From the IMG/VR virus record IMGVR_UViG_3300045988_151419, positions 1-6,469 of that record: a stretch of 6,469 bases of DNA. One strand, given 5' to 3'. Both the position numbers and the translations under genes were made by a program. Below, in pieces: positions 1 through 6,360 of this stretch. Source of the DNA: a virus. Under the pieces are notes generated by a model. The model worked only from the letters and a program-made list of their open reading frames with translations, was not told the DNA's origin and made no database searches. Every line of letters begins with the position of its first letter. The stretch's first letter is position 1.

Positions 1-119
1 ATCGAGATAAAGTTTTTACAATCTTATGTATACGCTGATGATGAAATTCAAGCGTATGAAAAACTAATTAAACACCTCACTCACTATGTACAATTTAGAG
101 TTAAAAACGCTTATGGGAC
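1..119. repeat. Terminal redundancy of a circular genome: 1-119 is identical to 6351-6469, giving a unit length of 6,350 nt. Features inside it are listed once.
   Basis: Exact 119-nt match between the window start and the window end, read directly from the sequence. This is the typical artefact of a circular contig. The partial second copy of the lipoprotein ORF start at 6436 is the same locus. Confidence 0.9.
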
Positions 120-379
120 TGATTTGTTCCACACTCAAGAAGATTTGGGTAACCCTGACTTTGAATAAAAAGCGGTTGTTGATTGTTGTCCTTTCCGCTT
201 CTGTTGCCGCTGTTGCTCTGCTCGTTATATCTTGCGGCACTACCCGAACCGTTGTCCGAACTCAGGGCAAAGGTACTACTAATGCTCAGATTAGTGTTAC
301 CACCAATAATCCTACAAGTGTTTCAGTTGAAACGCGTTTGGATAGTACCAAATTGCAAATCAATAAAACTGGTAAATAA
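86..379 (+). CDS. Small putative lipoprotein. The ORF is 97 aa from ATG 86; the TTG at 161 or ATG at 113 are possible true starts. The signal peptide N-K-K-R-LLIVVLSASVAAVALLVIS is followed by Cys50 (nt 233-235), and the mature part is ~47 aa and Thr/Asn/Ser/Val-rich.
   Basis: The translation shows a positively charged n-region (KKR), a 19-aa hydrophobic h-region and a lipobox-like V-I-S-C. The stop overlaps the rep start (TAATG at 377-381), indicating translational coupling. Function is unknown. Confidence 0.45.
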   Translation: MYNLELKTLMGLICSTLKKIWVTLTLNKKRLLIVVLSASVAAVALLVISCGTTRTVVRTQGKGTTNAQISVTTNNPTSVSVETRLDSTKLQINKTGK

Positions 380-1620
380 TGTGCTTTTGTCCAATAACTC
401 GTAAAATTGAAAATCACGGTTTTACACGTATAGTTACACATCCTTGCGGTAAATGCTTGGAATGTGTTGCTCAGTTGCAAAACGACTGGGCTAACCGTAT
501 GTCTGACGAGTTCATGAATTGGAAACACGCATATTTTGGCACTTTCACTTATGGAAATTCTTGCATCCCCTATGTTGACGTTATTCCCTCGGAATTGCCT
601 GCCGCGAAGTTGGCTTACCTTGTTCAGGCTATAAAAAAAATTCCTCAGTCTGCTTCCCTTGCTAAGGCGCGTGCGCGTAAAGATGTATTTTCTGATTATC
701 TTACGCCTGATTCTCTTGAAAAGTTGTCTATCCGTGTGCCTTATGTTTCTAAATACGACATTCAGTGCTTTATTAAGCGTGTCCGTACATCCTACGAACG
801 CAAGTATAATGAGCCTTTGGAACTGAAGTATTTTATTTGTAGCGAGTATGGCCCTTGCACCTTGCGTCCTCATTACCACGGTATTTTCTTTTCAAACTCG
901 TGTTGGGAACGGCTTGCGCCGTTCTTCTATAAACATTATACCTACGGTGCTATTCGTGGATTTCACGAACTTGAATTGCGTAACGGTAATATTAGTGATG
1001 CTTGCGCTTACTGTGCTAAATATTGTTGCAAGCCTGCGGAGTTTGAAAACCCCTATGTCGTTGCCGGTCTTATCCCTCGTCCTTTTCGTCTAATGTCCAA
1101 AGGTATCGGAGAGGTTGAGCGCGCTAAGGTAGTCGCTGCTGCTAACTCTTACAAAGGAATCAAGCGTAATGGTTGTAAAGAGTACTACGGATATAATCCC
1201 GTTTTTCTCGAATGGCTGCGGCTCAAGTTGTCGCGTTTCTCTCAGGATAAATCCGGTAATTGGCATACCGTTAAGCAACCTCGCTATTATACTGATAAGT
1301 GTTTCCCTCAAAGTGTACATTATTCACAACTTTATAAATTACAACCCAATGGCGAATATCAACCCGTTATTGTCAAGACTATGCGGAAAAATTGCGATAG
1401 TCTGCTATTCCTTGCATATACGCGCTATATGGAAAATAGATATATTCAACTATGTAATGACAAATTTCAGTCGCTTAAAGCCCAATTTCCTACCTTGTCA
1501 GATTCGGAAGTCATTCATAGGGCTGAAATTGAACGTGTTCAGAATCTTCGCGAACGTTACGCTAAACGGCTATCGTCGTTTGTCAAATTTTATGGTAAAT
1601 CATTCCTAAAGGATACCTAG
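379..1620 (+). CDS. Replication initiation protein (rolling-circle HUH endonuclease, Microviridae VP4 / phiX A-like), 413 aa.
   Basis: Translation contains motif I YFGTFTY, motif II RPHYHGIFF (HUH) and motif III AYCAKYCCK (the YxxKY catalytic tyrosine pair). An N-terminal Cys cluster (CFCP...HPCGKCLEC) is typical of gokushovirus-like Rep proteins. Length and position next to the capsid gene fit. Confidence 0.9.
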   Translation: MCFCPITRKIENHGFTRIVTHPCGKCLECVAQLQNDWANRMSDEFMNWKHAYFGTFTYGNSCIPYVDVIPSELPAAKLAYLVQAIKKIPQSASLAKARARKDVFSDYLTPDSLEKLSIRVPYVSKYDIQCFIKRVRTSYERKYNEPLELKYFICSEYGPCTLRPHYHGIFFSNSCWERLAPFFYKHYTYGAIRGFHELELRNGNISDACAYCAKYCCKPAEFENPYVVAGLIPRPFRLMSKGIGEVERAKVVAAANSYKGIKRNGCKEYYGYNPVFLEWLRLKLSRFSQDKSGNWHTVKQPRYYTDKCFPQSVHYSQLYKLQPNGEYQPVIVKTMRKNCDSLLFLAYTRYMENRYIQLCNDKFQSLKAQFPTLSDSEVIHRAEIERVQNLRERYAKRLSSFVKFYGKSFLKDT

Positions 1621-1644: not shown

Positions 1645-3375
1645 ATGTCACATTCTTCTAAACTATTCGAGCAGCACAAGGTTCAGATAAAAAATAAATC
1701 TGGCTTTGACCTTGCTCACTCTAATTTTCTCACGCAGACGTGCGGAACTTTGACGCCTGTTTGTACCGTTCCTATGCTCCCCGGGGATAGTATTTCTCTC
1801 GGTTTTATGAGCCAAATCAAGTTGCCGCCTATGGCTACTTCTTTCTATGGTCGTGTCGATTATCGTCTTGAAGCATTTTTTGTACCTTACCGCATTCTTT
1901 GGGGCGGTTGGGAAAATTTCTACACTCAGCCTATTGCCGACCCTTACGGTTCTATGGTTGATCGGCCACATTGTTTGCCTAATTTTGTTGGTTCTCTTGT
2001 TCCTGATTTGCTTAATTCTATGTTTGGCCGTGGCTCTCTTGCTGATTACTTGGGTTTGAAAGGTTATAAACTTGCTTCTTCTCCTACTAGTGCTCAGGTT
2101 GCGCTTAACAATATTCTTCCATTTCTTGCCTATCATAAAATTTATGATGATTGGTATCGTAATGCTAATATTCAGAAGCCGGTTTTTGTTCGTCATAATA
2201 GTTATGATGAAAAAACTGCTTTGTCTGGTTGTCCTTATATAAGTACGACTATTACTGCCGGTAATATTTCGACCGGAGGTATCCCCGCTACTAATATTAA
2301 CATTGATGTTGCTGACTCTAACTCGCCACTTACTTCTATAGGTTTTGCTAATTATTCTGACGCTCCGCGCGGTGTTGTTCATGCTCAGCCTGTTTTTTCG
2401 GACGGTAAATCTTTATTTTCCTTAAGACAGCGCAATTGGTCTAAAGATTATTTTACTACCGCTACTCTTTATCCTCAGCAGTCAGGTACTACCGCGGGTG
2501 CTTCTATTTCTGCTGTTACTCCTGCCGAGGGTGATTCTACTCAGTTTACTATTTCTCAGATTAGGCAGGCTAATATTCTTCAGAAATGGCTTGAGCGCAA
2601 TAATATAGCCGGTTCTCGTTATGCCGACCAAATTCGCGCTACCTTTGGCGTGCTTCCGTCTGATGCCATGCTCGATCGTGCTATTTTCTTGGGTGGTAGT
2701 TCTTTCGGCATTTATACGAATTCTATTGCTCAGAGCGTTAATTCTGATAAGGGCTCTTCTGCTAACCCTTATTCCGGTACTGCTGGTGCTGACTCCGGTC
2801 AGACTTCCGGTTTTGGTAAAGATAGCCTAATTGATAAATTTACGGCTACCGAGCATGGTATTATAATGGTTATTGGCTCTATTGTTCCTCACGCTACATA
2901 TTCCACCGGTTCATCTCGTATGTTTGCTATGTCAAGTTATGGCGATATTCCTAATCCTATGTTTGAGGGCCTTGGACAGGAAAGCATTCTTAACGCTGAA
3001 CTTATTCCGGTTTCTTTCGATTCTTCTTTTGATAACAAGGTTTTCGGGTATGTGGACCAGTATGCTTGGTGTAAATATATGAATGACGAAGTCCATGGTC
3101 TTCTTGTCGACGGTGAAAATCTTGAATCTTTTGCGCTTCAGCGTTCTTTTGATTTAAATTCTGCTAAATTGGATAGTTCTTTTATTACTATTCCTACTGA
3201 CTATCTTGACCAAGTTTTGGCTGTTAAACAATCCGGTTCGGGTTTTTCTGCTTGGGCTAATATGTATTTTGACATTAAGAAAACTTCTCTCCTTAGTCAG
3301 TACACTATTCCTACGCTCGGAGAGCCTAAGAATACTCATACCGAAAGTATCCCTAACACTGGTAGATACCTATAG
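1645..3375 (+). CDS. Major capsid protein (Microviridae VP1 / F-like), 576 aa.
   Basis: The N-terminal region (KSGFDLAHSNFLTQTCGTLTPVCTVPMLPGDSIS) matches the conserved FD.S/H....T..G.L.P....LPGD signature of microvirus MCPs. Conserved YDDWYRN and LQKWLERN blocks flank a Ser/Thr/Gly-rich variable insertion. It is the longest ORF and is similar in size to gokushovirus VP1. Confidence 0.9.
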   Translation: MSHSSKLFEQHKVQIKNKSGFDLAHSNFLTQTCGTLTPVCTVPMLPGDSISLGFMSQIKLPPMATSFYGRVDYRLEAFFVPYRILWGGWENFYTQPIADPYGSMVDRPHCLPNFVGSLVPDLLNSMFGRGSLADYLGLKGYKLASSPTSAQVALNNILPFLAYHKIYDDWYRNANIQKPVFVRHNSYDEKTALSGCPYISTTITAGNISTGGIPATNINIDVADSNSPLTSIGFANYSDAPRGVVHAQPVFSDGKSLFSLRQRNWSKDYFTTATLYPQQSGTTAGASISAVTPAEGDSTQFTISQIRQANILQKWLERNNIAGSRYADQIRATFGVLPSDAMLDRAIFLGGSSFGIYTNSIAQSVNSDKGSSANPYSGTAGADSGQTSGFGKDSLIDKFTATEHGIIMVIGSIVPHATYSTGSSRMFAMSSYGDIPNPMFEGLGQESILNAELIPVSFDSSFDNKVFGYVDQYAWCKYMNDEVHGLLVDGENLESFALQRSFDLNSAKLDSSFITIPTDYLDQVLAVKQSGSGFSAWANMYFDIKKTSLLSQYTIPTLGEPKNTHTESIPNTGRYL

Positions 3376-3399: not shown

Positions 3400-3690
3400 A
3401 TGTTACATAAATCTATTTCTTCAGGTCAAGACCGTGGGCCCGCTTTTGAGGGCCTTGCTGTTAATATCAACGAAATTATCGAACACCATACGATTTCGGA
3501 CGCTTCTCAGGAAGTTTCTAGTAATGAACTTCAGCGTATAGAAGATATTGGATTTCGCATTAACGAGGATTTCGATATGTTCCGCATTCTTAAGTCTCAG
3601 TTAGGTGTAAAAGCCGCTAACGCCGGTATAGGTGCTTCTCAGGGCCCTACGCCTACCGCTGACACTCCTGCTGCTCCTGCTGCAGAGTAG
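3400..3690 (+). CDS. Small acidic hypothetical protein (96 aa) with a Pro/Ala/Thr-rich C-terminal tail; possibly a scaffolding-type protein.
   Basis: The ORF lies directly after the MCP stop and shows the same T-biased third positions as the confirmed genes. Net charge is acidic (many D/E), as in internal scaffolding proteins of microviruses. No motif was recognised. Confidence 0.45.
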   Translation: MLHKSISSGQDRGPAFEGLAVNINEIIEHHTISDASQEVSSNELQRIEDIGFRINEDFDMFRILKSQLGVKAANAGIGASQGPTPTADTPAAPAAE

Positions 3691-3699
3691 TCAACCCTT

Positions 3700-3760
3700 T
3701 ATGGGCGGTCGCTATATTGGCGGCCGTCCGCATTTCTTGCGAAATATATGCGGATTGACA
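3700..3760 (+). promoter_or_regulatory. GC-rich dyad-symmetry block. Its parts are gggcggtcgc...ggcggccgtccgc, a palindromic cggccg at 3721-3726, and a 7-bp hairpin tccgcat(3727-3733)/atgcgga(3748-3754) immediately followed by TTGACA (3755-3760).
   Basis: Inverted repeats were read directly. The block sits between the 96-aa ORF stop and the 105-aa ORF start, a position consistent with a terminator/attenuator followed by a -35-like hexamer. The -10 partner is weak (gaataa at 3778-3783). Confidence 0.3.
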
Positions 3761-3803
3761 CACTCCTAAAAATCAATGAATAAAACAAAATTGTTACAAA
3801 ATT

Positions 3804-4121
3804 ATGGGTACTACTGCTATTATCGCCGGTATTCTTTCGCTTCTTGCTTCAATTGGCGGATTTGCCGGTAAGAAGTTACACGATAAAAATGCTCGTGAAA
3901 TGACTAATGCGATGTCCGATGTAGATGATTCCTCAAAAGGTATTACTGTTGCTTCTGACGTCACCGGTTTGGCTGCTCAGGCTCTTTCTATGTTTTCCGG
4001 TTTCGGCTCTCTTCCGTCTAAGCCTAATTCTACGCAGGTAGCCACCGAATACTTTAAGCGTTGGAATGCCGGTCGCGCTAAGTCGCTTGGTCTTGCGTTT
4101 AATCCTCAAAATTTGAAATAA
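3804..4121 (+). CDS. Small membrane protein (105 aa). It has an N-terminal transmembrane helix (TTAIIAGILSLLASIGGFAG) followed by KK, then a hydrophilic body and a basic C-terminus.
   Basis: The hydrophobic 20-aa stretch followed by lysines is visible in the translation. The stop TAA at 4119-4121 lies 1 nt before the ATG of the next gene at 4123, indicating tight coupling. Codon bias is consistent with a real gene. Confidence 0.5.
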   Translation: MGTTAIIAGILSLLASIGGFAGKKLHDKNAREMTNAMSDVDDSSKGITVASDVTGLAAQALSMFSGFGSLPSKPNSTQVATEYFKRWNAGRAKSLGLAFNPQNLK

Positions 4122-4122
4122 T

Positions 4123-5406
4123 ATGGCTGTTTCTTTTTGGGACAAAGTCGCTGCTGTTTTTGGCGGTAAACGTCCAGAATATTACGAACAACGTAGGCGG
4201 CAACGCAAGCAGAATAACGGTAAGGAACAAACCTCGCTTGTCGGTCAAGGTCTTGGCGATATTTTCGACCGTTATGGCAATATGGGCGCCGATGAAAATG
4301 GTGTCCGTACTTCTGCCGGTAATTCGCGCGGTGATTCATTCAACAATACTCAACTTGCAGAAATGCAGTATAACCACGATGAAGCGCAATTGGATAGGCA
4401 ATGGCAAGAGGATATGTATAGAAAATATCAATCACCAGAAGCACAAATGCGACAGTATGATGATGCCGGATTAAACCGCGCTTTGGCCTATAATGGTGGT
4501 GTTGATATCAATGGCCCGTCCGGCGGTTCTGCTGCTTCCGCTGATGTTGCTACCTCTGGTGAATCTCCTACTAATGGCTTTCAATCTGCTATGAGCGTTA
4601 TGTCAACCGTTATGGAGTTGCTTTTAGGTGGTTCTAACCTTGCCACTTCTTTGAAGTCTATTAGTAACCAGTCGCGTAGTGTTGATAATGATACCTCGCG
4701 TACAACTGCCCAAAATGCTCTTACTTCTGAAGAGCAAAAGAAAACCGCTGAGGAAACTAAAGGTATTAAGATTGACAATGACCGCAAACAACTTCAGTTC
4801 ACTATTGAACAGGCTACTAAAATGGATGTTATTTCTCAGAAGCAGGCAGAGGCGGCGATTGCTGAATGGAATGCTGACGTGTTGGCCGGTACTCCTGTTG
4901 AAGAGGCTACTAAGAATATTCTTACCAAGTATAATATTGATAAGGAAAATCTTGAAAATCTCAAGTCTGATACCGATAAAAATAAGGCTTACTCTGCTCT
5001 AATTCGTGGTCGTAATACTCGTGAAGAGGCTAAGAATCGGGCCGATATTGCTGAGATTCAGGCGCGTATTGAGGAAATCGGTACTGAGGCTGAGTTTAAC
5101 CGTGTTCATACTGACGTAGAAAGGGAAATACATAAATCCGCTAAGGCAAAAGCATTTTACGACAAGTATGCTGCTGATAACAATTTGCCGCTTGGCGATT
5201 ATACTGCTATCGCTCTTTTCCGTAACTATCATTTGTGGTACACCAAGACTCAGGATGCCAAGTATCTTACTATGATGAACGAAATCCGCGATATGCTTTA
5301 CAAGAATATGGGTAAAGATTTCAAAATTACGTGGAAAGATGTCGGCGGTTACCTTTCTGGTGCTCTCAATTCCGGCATTAAAGCCGCTGCAATTCTTGCC
5401 AAATAA
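4123..5406 (+). CDS. Probable DNA pilot / minor capsid protein (VP2 / H-like), 427 aa.
   Basis: It has a basic N-terminus (RRRQRKQNNGK), a Gly/Ser-rich segment (NGGVDINGPSGGSAASADVATSG) and a long charged heptad-like E/K/Q-rich C-terminal half (EEQKKTAEETKGIKIDNDRKQLQF...EIQARIEEIGTEAEF) typical of coiled-coil tube-forming pilot proteins. The size and position after the capsid gene are as in gokushoviruses. Similarity was not verified. Confidence 0.55.
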   Translation: MAVSFWDKVAAVFGGKRPEYYEQRRRQRKQNNGKEQTSLVGQGLGDIFDRYGNMGADENGVRTSAGNSRGDSFNNTQLAEMQYNHDEAQLDRQWQEDMYRKYQSPEAQMRQYDDAGLNRALAYNGGVDINGPSGGSAASADVATSGESPTNGFQSAMSVMSTVMELLLGGSNLATSLKSISNQSRSVDNDTSRTTAQNALTSEEQKKTAEETKGIKIDNDRKQLQFTIEQATKMDVISQKQAEAAIAEWNADVLAGTPVEEATKNILTKYNIDKENLENLKSDTDKNKAYSALIRGRNTREEAKNRADIAEIQARIEEIGTEAEFNRVHTDVEREIHKSAKAKAFYDKYAADNNLPLGDYTAIALFRNYHLWYTKTQDAKYLTMMNEIRDMLYKNMGKDFKITWKDVGGYLSGALNSGIKAAAILAK

Positions 5407-5442
5407 ATGCTCTTCGTTTGGTGGAACGTCGTACCGTTTTAT

Positions 5443-5480
5443 AGGCTATAATCTTGTATTATAGCCTTATTTACTTTCGT
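5443..5480 (+). terminator. Candidate intrinsic terminator: a perfect 10-bp stem aggctataat(5443-5452)/attatagcct(5458-5467) with loop cttgt, followed by a T-rich tract (tatttactttcgttatttcttattttatttt).
   Basis: The inverted repeat was read directly. It lies 37 nt after the pilot gene stop and is followed by a long T-rich run. The stem is AT-rich with only 3 GC pairs, so its strength is moderate. Confidence 0.5.
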
Positions 5481-5511
5481 TATTTCTTATTTTATTTTCA
5501 TTCTTACAAGA

Positions 5512-5547
5512 CGCGCGCGCGCGAAACCGTATAATCGCGCGTGCGCG
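5512..5547. promoter_or_regulatory. Alternating (CG)6 tract cgcgcgcgcgcg (5512-5523) paired with cgcgcgtgcgcg (5536-5547). It is a near-perfect 12-bp GC dyad that could form a hairpin or cruciform and has Z-DNA potential. The loop aaaccgTATAATcg contains a TATAAT hexamer.
   Basis: Read directly from the sequence. Pure alternating CG is highly atypical in a genome that is otherwise T/A-rich. It is a candidate origin or control element. Confidence 0.5.
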
Positions 5548-5563
5548 ACCTTGTCCACCTCAC

Positions 5564-5612
5564 GTGGCGGCCGATTGCTGGCCTTTAATAGCAATGCAAT
5601 CTTGGCCGCCAC
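5564..5612. promoter_or_regulatory. Long nested hairpin. The outer 9-bp GC stem gtggcggcc(5564-5572)/ggccgccac(5604-5612) continues into gattgc(5573-5578), which can pair with either copy of a tandem GCAAT-GCAAT (5591-5600). Candidate replication origin (+ strand nick site) or complementary-strand priming structure.
   Basis: Reverse complements were verified by eye: rc(gtggcggcc)=ggccgccac, rc(attgct)=agcaat and rc(gattgc)=gcaatc. The hairpin is adjacent to the CG dyad and is followed by an extreme AT block. Confidence 0.5.
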
Positions 5613-5646
5613 ACTATCTATAAATATATAAATAAATAAAATATTT

Positions 5647-5678
5647 TTTGGTTATGTAATTTTAAGTATATATATTTG
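5647..5678 (+). promoter_or_regulatory. Candidate Bacteroidota-type promoter: TTTG (5647-5650), a 20-nt spacer, then TAtaTTTG (5671-5678, matching the -7 consensus TAnnTTTG). The predicted transcription start is ~5685.
   Basis: Matches the published Bacteroides sigma-AB promoter architecture (-33 TTTG / -7 TAnnTTTG, ~19-21 bp apart). It sits in an extreme AT-rich block (5613-5680). Host assignment is inference. Confidence 0.3.
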
Positions 5679-5734
5679 CCATCAAATTATGATTTGTTAT
5701 GCTTATAACTGATGATCCTAATAAAGAAAAAGAA

Positions 5735-5751
5735 ATCCTATTATATAGGAT
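5735..5751. promoter_or_regulatory. Perfect 7-bp palindrome atcctat-tat-ataggat followed by GC then a T-run (ctcctttttcttggtgtgtttctttttgg). Possible weak terminator or protein-binding site.
   Basis: Inverted repeat read directly; T-tracts at 5756-5760 and 5772-5779. Confidence 0.3.
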
Positions 5752-5777
5752 GCTCCTTTTTCTTGGTGTGTTTCTTT

Positions 5778-5805
5778 TTGGCTTTGTCCTATTGATTGTT
5801 ATAAT
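5778..5805 (+). promoter_or_regulatory. Candidate sigma70-like promoter with an extended -10: TTGGCT (5778-5783), a 16-nt spacer, then TGtTATAAT (5797-5805). It would drive the 76-aa and 82-aa ORFs and, through coupling, possibly the lipoprotein and rep genes.
   Basis: Hexamers were read directly. It lies ~80 nt upstream of the ATG at 5885 and overlaps the imperfect inverted repeat ttgttataatgttaa / ttaacataacaa (5796-5831). Confidence 0.3.
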
Positions 5806-5884
5806 GTTAATACAGTAACTTAACATAACAATAAATTGTATAACACATCATGTTGCGATATTAACCCACAAATTTATTTATATT

Positions 5885-6115
5885 ATGGCTACTTTCAAAA
5901 TTACATTTAACTCCATTTCGCTTGGTCGGCGCATTTCGTTTGCTCAGTACATCGGCTTGAAGTCTGATTATATGAGCCTTCGTTCTTTTCTTGCTGCCTG
6001 TGCTGTCATCTCTAAGGAGCCTGAGAAGTTTCCATGTATTCAGGTTGTCGTTCATGATTCTGACGGTACTACTTGTATTTCCTCGGATTTTCTCTTTAGT
6101 GCTGTTCGTGTATGA
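5885..6115 (+). CDS. Hypothetical small protein, 76 aa.
   Basis: First ORF after the long non-coding region, with T-biased third codon positions like the confirmed genes. Its stop overlaps the next ORF's start (ATGA at 6112-6115). No recognisable motif. Confidence 0.4.
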   Translation: MATFKITFNSISLGRRISFAQYIGLKSDYMSLRSFLAACAVISKEPEKFPCIQVVVHDSDGTTCISSDFLFSAVRV

Positions 6116-6360
6116 AACGAGTTGCTGCTAAATCTCCTACCGGTATCGCGTATATAGTTGCTAAGTATATTAAGACTCCTGCCGGTGTTTGTTCTATGAT
6201 TCAGGAAAGTGTTACTGACTTCGGTTCATCTTCAAATAAGTGCTATTTTGGTCATGAAGATCTAAAGGATTTCTTGCGATACGTTGATTATCTCGACCAT
6301 AAATATACTGACTTGGGTTATAAAGTTCATCGTGTATGCAATATTTCGATATCGAGATAA
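6112..6360 (+). CDS. Hypothetical small protein, 82 aa, rich in Tyr/Lys/Asp. It may be a small non-structural, packaging or DNA-binding protein, but this is not established.
   Basis: The ORF is translationally coupled to the upstream 76-aa ORF by an ATGA overlap. It ends inside the terminal repeat (stop at 6358-6360, equal to positions 8-10). Codon bias is consistent with a real gene. Confidence 0.4.
   Translation: MKRVAAKSPTGIAYIVAKYIKTPAGVCSMIQESVTDFGSSSNKCYFGHEDLKDFLRYVDYLDHKYTDLGYKVHRVCNISISR

Follow-up and report, generated by a model that had tools for sequence, protein, structure and literature searches.

A composite control region with conserved, strand-biased hairpins in the genome of a predicted temperate microvirus of Bacteroidales

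Alpavirinae-like microviruses belong to the most common phages in the gut of humans and animals, but to our knowledge their replication origins have not been mapped, and we know of no study of how single-stranded DNA is primed in Bacteroidales. No paper was found in the literature searched that pairs 'Alpavirinae' with 'origin of replication', or that describes the hairpins reported here. The complementary-strand origins of phages such as G4 and M13 usually contain several hairpins. Origins of this kind are described as hairpins with imperfect stems that lie in a non-coding spacer and function on one strand only; host enzymes recognise them, they do not depend on Rep and they behave like cassettes (PMC5714925, PMC9865509). 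The BMV1-7 'Alpavirinae' proviruses have, like the virus studied here, a Rep-VP1-...-VP2 gene block, no integrase gene and Bacteroidales hosts, and they carry the same kind of dif-like attachment site, in the spacer between VP2 and the next gene and duplicated at both prophage ends (Krupovic & Forterre 2011, PMC3091885). Hairpins or stem-loops are mentioned nowhere in that paper, and it describes neither the hairpin block nor the promoter and small gene that we find by the attachment site.

The DNA analysed, hereafter the window, is the whole stretch of 6,469 nt and represents a complete circular microvirus genome of 6,350 nt with a terminal redundancy of 119 nt. Its mean G+C content was computed to be 41%, close to the 40% given in an earlier note on this DNA. 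The encoded proteins include a Phage_F capsid protein, a pilot protein and an HUH Rep (379-1620) that contains the two-tyrosine motif YCAKY (Pfam and PHROG matches), in a gokushovirus-like order, and the Rep matches Pfam REP_ORF2-G2P, a family that takes in the gene II proteins. No virus-encoded integrase was found, as none of the ORF products scanned matched a recombinase family. A megablast search of the window against GenBank phages gave two partial matches only, and close relatives therefore had to be drawn from metagenomes. The comparison set consists of about 15 relatives, many of them integrated in bacterial chromosomes. Those with a VP1 68-96% identical to that of the window sit in long contigs between bacterial genes, with a Na/Pi cotransporter on one side and a flavoprotein and pyruvate kinase on the other, and some of the relatives are located in Bacteroidales and Muribaculaceae MAG contigs. 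These contigs, together with a Bacteroides-type promoter, point to a Bacteroidales host. Judged from its sequence, the virus is a temperate, Bacteroidales-associated, Alpavirinae-like microvirus of the gut. A pattern search of IMG/VR for the attachment site gave 0 matches, which suggests that the clade is nearly absent from that collection. The comparison with the relatives also showed that the window itself is mosaic.

The region 5407-5884 appears from its conservation to be a real, composite control region of five parts, namely a terminator, two hairpins on the + strand (together the hairpin block), a promoter, a gene for 39 amino acids and a dif-like attachment site (Table 1). Inspection of the sequence confirmed every structure listed in the earlier note, and its proposal of a control region was borne out, with the terminator, the promoter and the attachment site all lying inside. 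The description of the region as non-coding was right for the hairpin block, across which no ORF is conserved, and wrong for the part occupied by a conserved 39-codon ORF, so this is a control region but not a wholly non-coding one.

Table 1. Coordinates of the features in the control region and of the candidate nick origin
Feature	Position	Strand	Basis
Leader	5407-5442	+	Directly 3' of the stop codon of VP2 (pilot protein); alignment A6
Predicted intrinsic terminator of the long gene block	5443-5499	+	Terminator scan, repeat I21, fold
Hairpin 1, alternating-CG stem	5506-5554	+	Folds; same hairpin in related intergenic regions
Hairpin 2, 9+6 bp stem with TT bulge	5564-5612	+	Folds
AT block with Bacteroides-type promoter	5613-5680	+	Composition, motif match
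Predicted 39-aa gene, unannotated, MLITDDPNKEKEILLYRMLLFLGVFLFGFVLLIVIMLIQ	5699-5818	+	ORF list, tblastn, alignment A3
Dif-like attachment site (attP)	5818-5846	+	Prophage junctions of relatives
Leader upstream of p76, the gene that follows (ATG at 5885)	5847-5884	+	Alignment by eye
Candidate rolling-circle (+) origin	3690-3763	+	Invariance, covarying stems, phiX174-like layout, fold

The terminator has the G+C hairpin and T-run, on the coding strand, that are typical of intrinsic terminators: a 10-bp hairpin at 5443-5467 (AGGCTATAAT-cttgt-ATTATAGCCT) precedes a T-rich tail, which extends over 5468-5499. In gamma-type relatives this position is taken by an unrelated hairpin with a T-run. About 30 nt of the leader in front of it (TGCTCTTCGyTTkGTGGAACGTyGyAC) are common to the lineage of L033, L024, L042 and L022, and the leader at the other end of the region carries a conserved ATTAACCyACAAAT motif.

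The AT block contains 13% G+C, the lowest of any 68-nt segment of the genome. It was proposed earlier as an unwinding element but is not demonstrably one, and we find it to be the promoter region of the small gene. The promoter follows the Bacteroides consensus from the literature (e.g. PMC4747536), with TTTG as the -33 element (5647-5650) and, after a spacer of 20 nt, the -7 box TATATTTG (5671-5678); the predicted transcription start is near 5685. This box is the sole intergenic TAnnTTTG on the + strand of the window. Of the 15 related regions tabulated, 11 have an exact TAnnTTTG 17-20 nt upstream of the ATG used for the small ORF. A sigma-70 promoter scan of the window was uninformative, since it gave no more matches than expected by chance and promoters of the host are of another type. 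The small ORF is predicted to be a conserved membrane-protein gene. Its product has a charged N-terminus and one hydrophobic segment of membrane-span length, tblastn matches were obtained in L022, L024 and L033, and 13 positions are invariant in the alignment of five homologues (A3). The DNA of the gene shows synonymous differences (ATA/ATT, ACT/ACA/ACC, GAT/GAC).

The attachment site consists of a XerD-arm-like part (ACTTAACATAA), the spacer CAATAAA and a XerC-arm-like part (TTGTATAACAC), and the prophages of the relatives are opened exactly at this site. Both attL and attR could be read in L017, L018, L022, L024, L034, L042, L185 and L186, the integrated copies being relatives and not the window itself, and the dif-like site of about 28 bp flanks these prophages as imperfect direct repeats. 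The attL in the hosts reads ACTTAACATAATATAAATTGTrTAAC, and at attR the viral sequence stops within the dif-like site (L017, L018, L019, L024, L025, L042 and L186). The chromosomal site of the host that corresponds to attP is ACTTAACATAATATAAATTGTGTAACAA. A folded single-stranded attP of the CTX-phi type was considered and rejected: the local inverted repeats around the site (I13) do not pair the same arms in all lineages, and attP matches attB directly as a duplex.

Hairpin 1 is formed by the (CG)6 tract CGCGCGCGCGCG (5512-5523), for which CGCGCGTGCGCG (5536-5547) is the partner. Positions 5512-5524 pair with 5535-5547 in a stem of 13 bp with one G.T pair, the loop is AACCGTATAA (5525-5534), and an outer 5-bp stem (ACAAG/CTTGT) extends the hairpin to its full length. 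With its alternating purines and pyrimidines over at least 12 bp the (CG)6 tract qualifies, by the sequence criterion, as a potential Z-DNA tract. Hairpin 2 contains the tandem GCAATGCAAT, and alternative registers of its loop region TGGCCTTTAATAGCAAT are possible via this GCAAT tandem. The earlier note had suggested folding 5500-5620 as single-stranded DNA; it reaches -40.0 kcal/mol as compared to -19.7 ± 2.6 kcal/mol for 200 dinucleotide shuffles, none of which folds as well (z = -7.7), and the whole of 5407-5884 has a z of -7.8. Together with the lack of a conserved ORF this gives the block a trait of single-strand origins (sso), extensive intrastrand pairing in a non-coding stretch.

The block is well conserved among the relatives. 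The alternating CG/TG hairpin 1 is present in all 15 related intergenic regions with 1-4 G.T pairs in each, and it varies only by C or T opposite G, never giving A.C. Its stem is kept as a sequence (alternating CG/TG, GCGCGTGCGCG) and not as structure alone. At the position of hairpin 2 the relatives have a long hairpin with an unrelated stem sequence, and alignment A5 shows compensatory changes in 9 pairs. The hairpin block of eight lineages folds with z = -4.8 to -8.3, and in each of them 0/200 shuffles fold as well. In six sequences, 97.1% of the cells are paired, a share that in shuffles is 87.1% (0/500). Changes on both sides are seen in eleven pairs (0/500 shuffles), and slid controls are at most 53% paired. 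The pair counts were made from the folds of the single sequences and from the alpha-type alignment A5; a MAFFT alignment of hairpin 1 from all lineages (A2) was left out, since the self-similarity of (CG)n makes it slip by two bases. In 15/15 regions the fold of the + strand is 3-11 kcal/mol more stable than that of the - strand, an asymmetry that a C-to-T mutational bias may mimic. The G.T-only pattern could also be due to such a bias of a single-stranded genome and not to selection, which would speak against priming. No reading frame is open across the block in all lineages, and we therefore rejected coding, also for an ORF of 41 aa that lies on the - strand (5487-5612). Of what the earlier note had proposed to look for in the intergenic regions of relatives, the stem-loops are conserved, with compensatory changes, but the nick motif in the loop of hairpin 2 (tggcctttaatagcaat) is not, among relatives with near-identical Rep.

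Some observations agree, indirectly, with a block that is independent of Rep. L017 and L018 have different types of intergenic region, though both are about 76% (Rep) and 73% (VP1) identical to the window. The alternating-CG hairpin and a GC hairpin with a TTTCGTAT loop recur in L256, with a VP1 48% identical, at another genomic position, upstream of rep and not after a long gene. GC-clamped hairpins occur in tandem in L020, with TTTCGTATTT loops in both, and in L017 and L019, with one TTTCGTATTT or TTTCGTATAT loop and a second TGTCGTTTTT loop. The block is also kept in L191 and L192, where the dif-like site was not found (up to 3 substitutions allowed), which implies that it is not an accessory of the Xer site. 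It is not universal in the wider group: L254 has only a GC hairpin pair of a different build, no strong hairpin away from the CTTG element described below was found in L253 and L255 at the threshold used, and the block was not found in L003-type genomes. The pattern CGCGCGCG-N6-30-GCGCGTGCGCG in IMG/VR retrieved mostly G+C-rich contigs of tailed phages and eight distant microviruses. In three of these eight the repeat is on the opposite strand, where it appears to encode an Arg/Ala-rich protein, and in four of the other five it overlaps mechanical ORFs, so the lead was given up.

Our best explanation, to which we would give an even chance of being right, is that 5407-5884 serves a temperate Bacteroidales microvirus as a composite control region, that the hairpins in it are a single-strand origin (sso/ssi) and that the nick site lies elsewhere. 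The long transcript would end at the terminator at 5443-5467, and the two very stable hairpins would occupy the gap between it and the next promoter, from which the 39-aa gene and probably the downstream genes would be transcribed. XerC/D of the host would insert the replicative form at attP into a chromosomal dif-like site. The hairpins themselves would act as DNA, and not as RNA, on the incoming single-stranded genome. We propose that the single-strand-binding protein of the host coats the + strand while the G+C-clamped stems stay folded, and that the conserved loops, with their CGTAT motif, are an entry site for the host primase or RNA polymerase, at which the synthesis of the complementary strand would begin. 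In the window the block is bordered by the terminator on one side and the sole intergenic TAnnTTTG box on the other, which argues for an action at the DNA level, and the cassette-like recurrence of the hairpin pair (L256) fits an element recognised by the host. The tandem GC-clamped hairpins argue for priming and against a nick site, since duplicate nick sites would be unstable. We know of no sequence similarity between the block and a characterised sso/ssi, which speaks against priming; Rfam, where DNA elements of this type are not expected, had no match to any part of the window at E<=1. The earlier note had left the choice between a rolling-circle and a single-strand origin; the latter is the best available reading, with a structure that is strand-biased and conserved by compensatory changes, and the rolling-circle nick origin is probably to be sought outside the region.

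A function in transcription or as RNA, with the hairpins as back-up terminators, as protection of mRNA 3' ends or as an insulator between terminator and promoter, seems unlikely to us. They do lie directly downstream of the last long gene, and since G.U is well tolerated in RNA the strand asymmetry fits RNA and single-stranded DNA alike. In the alpha and beta lineages, where there is no separate terminator, hairpin 1 comes about 6-10 nt after the VP2 stop and could end transcription, an observation that goes against priming. However, a canonical terminator precedes the hairpins in the window and in the gamma lineage, so that most transcripts should stop earlier, and a T-run is missing after each of hairpins 1-3; the 3' flanks of hairpins 1 and 2 are ACCTTGTCCA and ACTATCTATA. 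The conservation of the alternating-CG stem and the TTTCGTAT loop exceeds what a terminator needs, and the presence of the same hairpin pair upstream of rep in L256 is also difficult to combine with such a function.

It is quite improbable that the GC hairpins are the rolling-circle (+) origin, with Rep nicking the loop of hairpin 2 (CCTTT/AATAGC) and the AT block melting. The loop contains CTTTAATAG, the nine bases around the gene II nick site of M13/f1 (TT/AA in a hairpin loop), which taken alone would count against priming. The Rep matches the family of the gene II proteins, several relatives have loops with a pyrimidine run followed by AAAT (CACCAAAT, CCCCTAAAT, CTCCAAAT), and the arrangement resembles the Ff intergenic region, where hairpins, a nick hairpin and an AT-rich block follow in this order. 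But the loop varies, being ACTCTCCTACA in L018 and CGCTGCACCGA in L185, whose Reps score like those of the lineages with AAAT loops, and CTTTAATAG is found somewhere in 22/200 shuffled genomes. The YCAKY two-tyrosine motif is of the phiX174 protein A type and not of the Ff type. The GC-clamped hairpins are, furthermore, not single-copy, as would be expected of a nick origin, but tandem in L020, L017 and L019, and there is no conserved CTTG nick motif within 5407-5884. With a loop that is not conserved and a 9-mer that is weakly significant, the M13 resemblance was given up as the main reading.

The nick site of Rep, i.e. the double-strand origin, is most likely at a CTTG hairpin at 3727-3762, and the (+) nick origin that the earlier note looked for in 5407-5884 is thus probably elsewhere. 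Here two hairpins lie within an outer stem, GTCAA/TTGAC: a GC hairpin (3702-3730) and the hairpin 3727-3733/3748-3754. The loop of the latter contains CTTG (3736-3739), and TTGACACA follows this hairpin at 3755-3762; ATTGACAC comes 14 nt after the loop CTTG. The 27 nt at 3736-3762 (CTTG-N14-ATwGAC, in the covarying hairpin) are the only k-mer of at least 12 nt that is exact in 13/13 genomes of the clade, and the element occurs in about 18 distinct versions, whose stems covary. The 30-nt viral-strand origin of phiX174 (CAACTTG/ATATTAATAACACTATAGACCAC) likewise has CTTG, 14 nt with an AT-rich stretch and ATwGAC..CAC, and both are invariant among diverged relatives. Unlike the phiX174 origin, this element is intergenic and has its CTTG in a covarying hairpin loop. 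The base after CTTG is C in the clade of the window, as compared to CTTGATA in many related lineages. It is the resemblance of the motif to phiX174 and pC194 that places the double-strand origin here and the sso in the hairpin block; invariance alone fits either role. The hairpin at 5443-5467 likewise has a CTTG in its loop, but we rejected it as a second origin, as no TTGACACA follows and the hairpin is replaced by unrelated sequence in relatives. The pattern CTTG-N12-GGATTGACACA gave 59 matches in IMG/VR, by a rough estimate mostly due to chance, and the only relative among them was L001 (found again as L251).

It is very unlikely that the hairpins are binding sites of a viral or host protein for some other DNA transaction (a bind or enhancer locus of Rep distant from the nick site, a Xer accessory, or a supercoil-driven cruciform or Z-DNA switch of the promoter in the double-stranded or prophage state). 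In favour of this reading, the conserved stem sequence of hairpin 1 (GCGCGTGCGCG) suggests a sequence- or conformation-specific recognition, the distance from this hairpin is about 120 nt to the promoter downstream and about 270 nt to attP, and some RCR replicons (pMV158) have a second, distant Rep-binding locus. Against it, the block persists where the dif-like site was not found, different types of intergenic region go freely with Reps of like score, and a purely duplex role leaves the preservation of pairing on the + strand only unexplained.

The structured spacer can now be divided into five bounded, separately testable elements, with a 27-nt nick-site candidate elsewhere in the genome. 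If the hairpins are a priming signal, as we prefer, the block would report how Bacteroidales turn incoming single-stranded DNA into duplex, a step that also matters for conjugative and mobilisable Bacteroidales elements, for the building of vectors and for the resurrection of phages from sequence. More tentatively, and with some doubt, the alternating-CG hairpin and the GC-clamped hairpin with the TTTCGTAT loop may represent a new class of sso that is used by the priming machinery of Bacteroidales and spreads as a cassette among gut microviruses; with the nick site at 3727-3762 they would be the first defined origin pair of microviruses outside the phiX174 group.

We know of no counterpart to the alternating-CG stem with its CGTAT loop among complementary-strand origins. 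In roodoodoo- and reekeekeeviruses, predicted, conserved spacer hairpins with compensatory changes were proposed as possible sites of negative-strand initiation (PMC9865509), but these belong to other clades, positions and sequences, and have neither the alternating-CG stem nor the link to an attachment site. The intergenic region of Ff (M13/f1) has (-) strand priming hairpins, a nick hairpin and an AT-rich flank in one spacer and shares CTTTAATAG with the window. It differs in that this 9-mer, weakly significant here, is not conserved in the relatives of the window, whose Rep is of the two-tyrosine phiX type and whose AT block is a promoter. A further likeness is to the ssi of phiX174, a hairpin for primosome assembly, to the (-) origins of G4 and Ff and to the sso of plasmids; the hairpin block is strand-biased, non-coding and conserved in structure, and it seems to recombine independently of Rep.

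The structures in the 478-nt spacer between VP2 and p76 (5407-5884) are real and far beyond chance. All elements that an earlier note on this sequence had named are in place: a 10-bp terminator hairpin at 5443-5467 followed by a T-rich tail, a (CG)6 dyad formed by 5512-5523 and its partner CGCGCGTGCGCG at 5536-5547 (a stem of 13 bp, one of them G.T, inside another stem of 5 bp), a 9+6 bp hairpin at 5564-5612 that holds the GCAAT tandem, and an AT block at 5613-5680 with 13% G+C, the genome minimum. The single-stranded DNA fold of 5500-5620, a check the note had suggested, gave -40.0 kcal/mol as compared to -19.7 ± 2.6 for shuffles (z = -7.7, 0/200).

In relatives the hairpins are kept as structures. 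The related spacers compared, fifteen from about eight distinct lineages, all have hairpin 1 (5506-5554 in the window) with an alternating CG/TG stem of 13-17 bp, and hairpin 2 (5564-5612), which is long and has a stem sequence wholly different from lineage to lineage. Most lineages add a hairpin 3, present once or twice, which is G+C-clamped and has TTTCGTATTT or a near match as its loop; the window and the gamma spacer lineage instead have the CGTAT motif in the loop of hairpin 1 (AACCGTATAA in the window). Folding z-scores were -4.8 to -8.3 in eight lineages, with 0/200 shuffles as good in each. Across 40 pairs in six aligned alpha-type sequences the paired state was 97.1%, as compared to 87.1% when shuffled (0/500), both sides had changed at eleven pairs (0/500), and slid partners, the control, were at most 53% paired. 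The seven variable pairs of hairpin 1 each had a change in a single partner, C/T opposite G in every case and never A.C, a G.T asymmetry that could be of mutational origin. The + strand fold was 3-11 kcal/mol better than that of the - strand in 15/15 spacers, and no frame was open across the hairpin block (hairpins 1 and 2) in all lineages. Some members of the group that are more remote were without the block at the threshold used. Some distant gokushovirus-like microviruses have alternating-CG repeats on the opposite strand that apparently encode an Arg/Ala-rich basic protein, thus a CG repeat in a microvirus need not be a hairpin element.

The first 119 nt of the window recur at its end, which makes it a circular genome of 6,350 nt; all its long ORFs are on the + strand, and the same genome was assembled from two other samples with one mismatch. 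Its VP1 is 93-96% identical to that of three relatives with alpha-type spacers (L025, L034, L035), yet its spacer is homologous to the gamma type, with the leader, the terminator position and hairpin 1 in common. The C-terminal half of VP2, like the spacer, resembles the L033/L024 lineage, to which VP1 identity is no more than 68%. The genome is therefore mosaic, 4123-5884 and 1645-3375 being of different affinity.

Coordinates of genes and other features in the window and in related genomes (L-numbers)
Feature	Genome	Position	Strand	Remarks
p97	window	86-379	+	
Rep	window	379-1620	+	Pfam REP_ORF2-G2P; HUH motif RPHYHGIFF; two-tyrosine motif YCAKY
VP1	window	1645-3375	+	major capsid protein; Phage_F
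p96	window	3400-3690	+	
p105	window	3804-4121	+	
VP2	window	4123-5406	+	pilot protein
Small ORF	window	5699-5818	+	slightly under usual length cut-off
attP	window	5818-5846		reads ACTTAACATAA-CAATAAA-TTGTATAACAC
p76	window	5885-6115	+	
p82	window	6112-6360	+	
Small-ORF slot	L027	2640-2816		
Small-ORF slot	L018	10938-11090		
Small-ORF slot	L185	11435-11542		
Small-ORF slot	L191	about 5286		
Small-ORF slot	L020	5999-6106		
Opposite-strand CG repeats	L089	about 1933-1961		VP1-oriented coordinates
Opposite-strand CG repeats	L126	about 3463-3487		VP1-oriented coordinates
Opposite-strand CG repeats	L148	about 2045-2077		VP1-oriented coordinates

Contrary to the note, the spacer is not wholly non-coding, since it carries a conserved ORF of 39 codons. 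By tblastn the ORF has counterparts in L022, L024 and L033 (40-44% identity) whose position is the same, its N-terminal part was detected in L186, and the L042 protein was included via the ORF at this position. The six proteins have in common MLITDDPxKEK, a basic stretch and a hydrophobic segment of membrane-span length (alignment A3). Within the conserved N-terminus the DNA differs by synonymous changes in third positions, which indicates selection on the protein. Upstream, 11/15 related spacers have an exact match to the Bacteroides -7 promoter element (TAnnTTTG box) 17-20 nt 5' of the ATG used, and the window and the gamma lineage also have a TTTG another 18-20 nt upstream of the box (12 nt in L022). 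The best reading of the extreme AT block is therefore a promoter region for the small gene. The box at 5671-5678 is the sole intergenic + strand TAnnTTTG match in the window, and for that reason it may possibly serve the whole gene set. What follows the conserved -7 box differs with the lineage, and small ORFs of three families unrelated to each other occur in this slot. The window has the membrane type, another type is basic (MNWxxRLFxFRxxKRS), and the third is that of L020, L017 and L019.

A VP1 search of metagenome contigs gave 47 loci, and many relatives with 68-96% identical VP1 sit in contigs of 9-124 kb. There the viral genes run p76 ... Rep-VP1-p96-p105-VP2 with bacterial genes on both sides, a Na/Pi cotransporter and a tRNA methyltransferase on one, a flavoprotein and pyruvate kinase on the other; MAG assignments of these prophage contigs were two Bacteroidales and one Muribaculaceae. 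A comparison of circular L033 with prophages L024 and L042 mapped both junctions to an overlap of 43 nt that lies between the small ORF and p76. The viral attachment site is TTAACATAA-CGTTAAA-TTGTGTAACAA and the chromosomal half-sites read ACTTAACATAA-TATAAA-TTGTrTAACA. Palindromes were correctly reported in the spacer, and part of them is the attachment site. In L020 (732-10736) and L022 (4760-15728) two viral genome copies stand head-to-tail within one contig, and as that of L022 is a 77-kb bacterial contig, it is a tandem prophage; such arrays are known for CTX-phi. The contig of the closest IMG/VR relative, L001, begins exactly at the p76 ATG and stops exactly at the last VP2 codon (positions 1 and 5896); it is without the entire spacer, and the record was probably trimmed or the assembly broken there. 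Between attP and the p76 start (5847-5884), the motif ATTAACCyACAAAT is kept across lineages with differing surroundings. The window site is the same dif-like site as in the Bacteroidetes microvirus proviruses described by Krupovic and Forterre, who proposed the use of host XerC/D (PMC3091885), and the window is therefore an Alpavirinae-like and probably temperate microvirus.

We searched 13 complete clade genomes for conservation beyond coding need. The only k-mer of at least 12 nt exactly common to all 13 was CTTGCGAAATATATGCGGATTGACACA (3736-3762) in the p96-p105 spacer, an element that can still be discerned in relatives whose VP1 identity is as low as about 40%. It forms a hairpin with a covarying stem (TCCGCAT/ATGCGGA, AGCGCACTATAT/ATATAGTGCGCT, TGCGCCCTATAT/ATATAGGGCGCA, ATAGCCCTATAT/ATATAGGGCTAT, TCCTGCCA/TGGCAGGA, TCCGCCAATAT/ATATTGGCGGA) and CTTG, often CTTGATA, in the loop. 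Directly 3' of the stem, TTGACACA pairs with an upstream GTCAA and closes a multi-hairpin fold (3690-3763). The phiX174 origin is CAACTTG/ATATTAATAACACT-ATAGACCAC, nicked after CTTG, and the corresponding window sequence is TTTCTTG-CGAAATATATGCGG-ATTGACACAC, with identical CTTG, identical 14-nt spacing and a similar right-hand motif (CTTG-N14-ATwGAC layout). CTTG/ATA is the nick site of the pC194 family, and Rep has the YxxKY motif of the phiX-type protein. From this resemblance and conservation, 3727-3762 is the best candidate for the double-strand (Rep nick) origin. The note's interpretation is partly borne out: the spacer at 5407-5884 is a conserved composite control region, and the rolling-circle nick origin that the note had proposed in it is better placed outside. 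The terminator hairpin at 5443-5467 has the loop CTTGT, with CTTG between TATA-rich stem halves, but it resembles the CTTG origin hairpins of relatives only superficially, being neither followed by TTGACACA nor conserved.

A further 27-mer, TTTGTCAAATTTTATGGTAAATCATTC, is almost invariant as well; it lies at the 3' end of rep (1579-1605) and has 0-1 mismatches in each clade member, L021 (2) and L022 (4) excepted. At this stretch synonymous codon identity is 0.91-0.95, as compared to 0.58 overall. An alternative-frame ORF overlaps the same part of rep (1169-1609; 146 aa in the window, about 200 aa in relatives). The conservation may reflect an overprinted gene, a signal for the expression of VP1 or an element that acts in replication.

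For its DNA replication a microvirus depends on two cis elements: one is nicked by Rep, and at the other host enzymes prime complementary-strand synthesis on the single strand that comes in (PMC5714925; PMC9865509). Every clade member examined has two structured non-coding elements, 3727-3762 and the hairpin block, one of which looks like a phiX-type nick site. The other, 5506-5612, has traits to be expected of the priming site, and we read it as the single-strand origin with about an even chance, the allocation of the two roles being based on motif resemblance. Several observations argue for it. The fold is specific to the packaged strand, the block lies between the terminator and the promoter in the window, which argues for action as DNA, it persists in L191 and L192, where the dif-like site was not found, and it recombines independently of Rep. 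It can also sit elsewhere in the genome: in L256 (VP1 48% identical, pig faeces) the stretch directly upstream of rep (5421-5600) has a hairpin of the alternating-CG kind and a GC hairpin whose loop is TTTCGTATAT, which implies that the pair moves as a unit within genomes. Furthermore, the GC-clamped class occurs as two tandem copies in some lineages, which favours a single-strand origin since duplicate nick sites would be unstable. A role at the RNA level or as terminators is improbable. Slightly more doubtful is the (+) origin that the note had proposed for these hairpins; what speaks for it most is that CTTTAATAG matches the nick site of M13, but this match is weakly significant and not conserved among relatives. 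Another protein-binding or conformational role is the least probable of these, and what likelihood remains belongs to functions outside the readings considered here.

In the published work that we searched, which lies outside subscription journals, neither these hairpins nor any Alpavirinae origin was described. The att site of the control region is of a kind already known; the hairpin block, if the single-strand origin reading holds, would be an undescribed variant of the complementary-strand origin theme of ssDNA phages.
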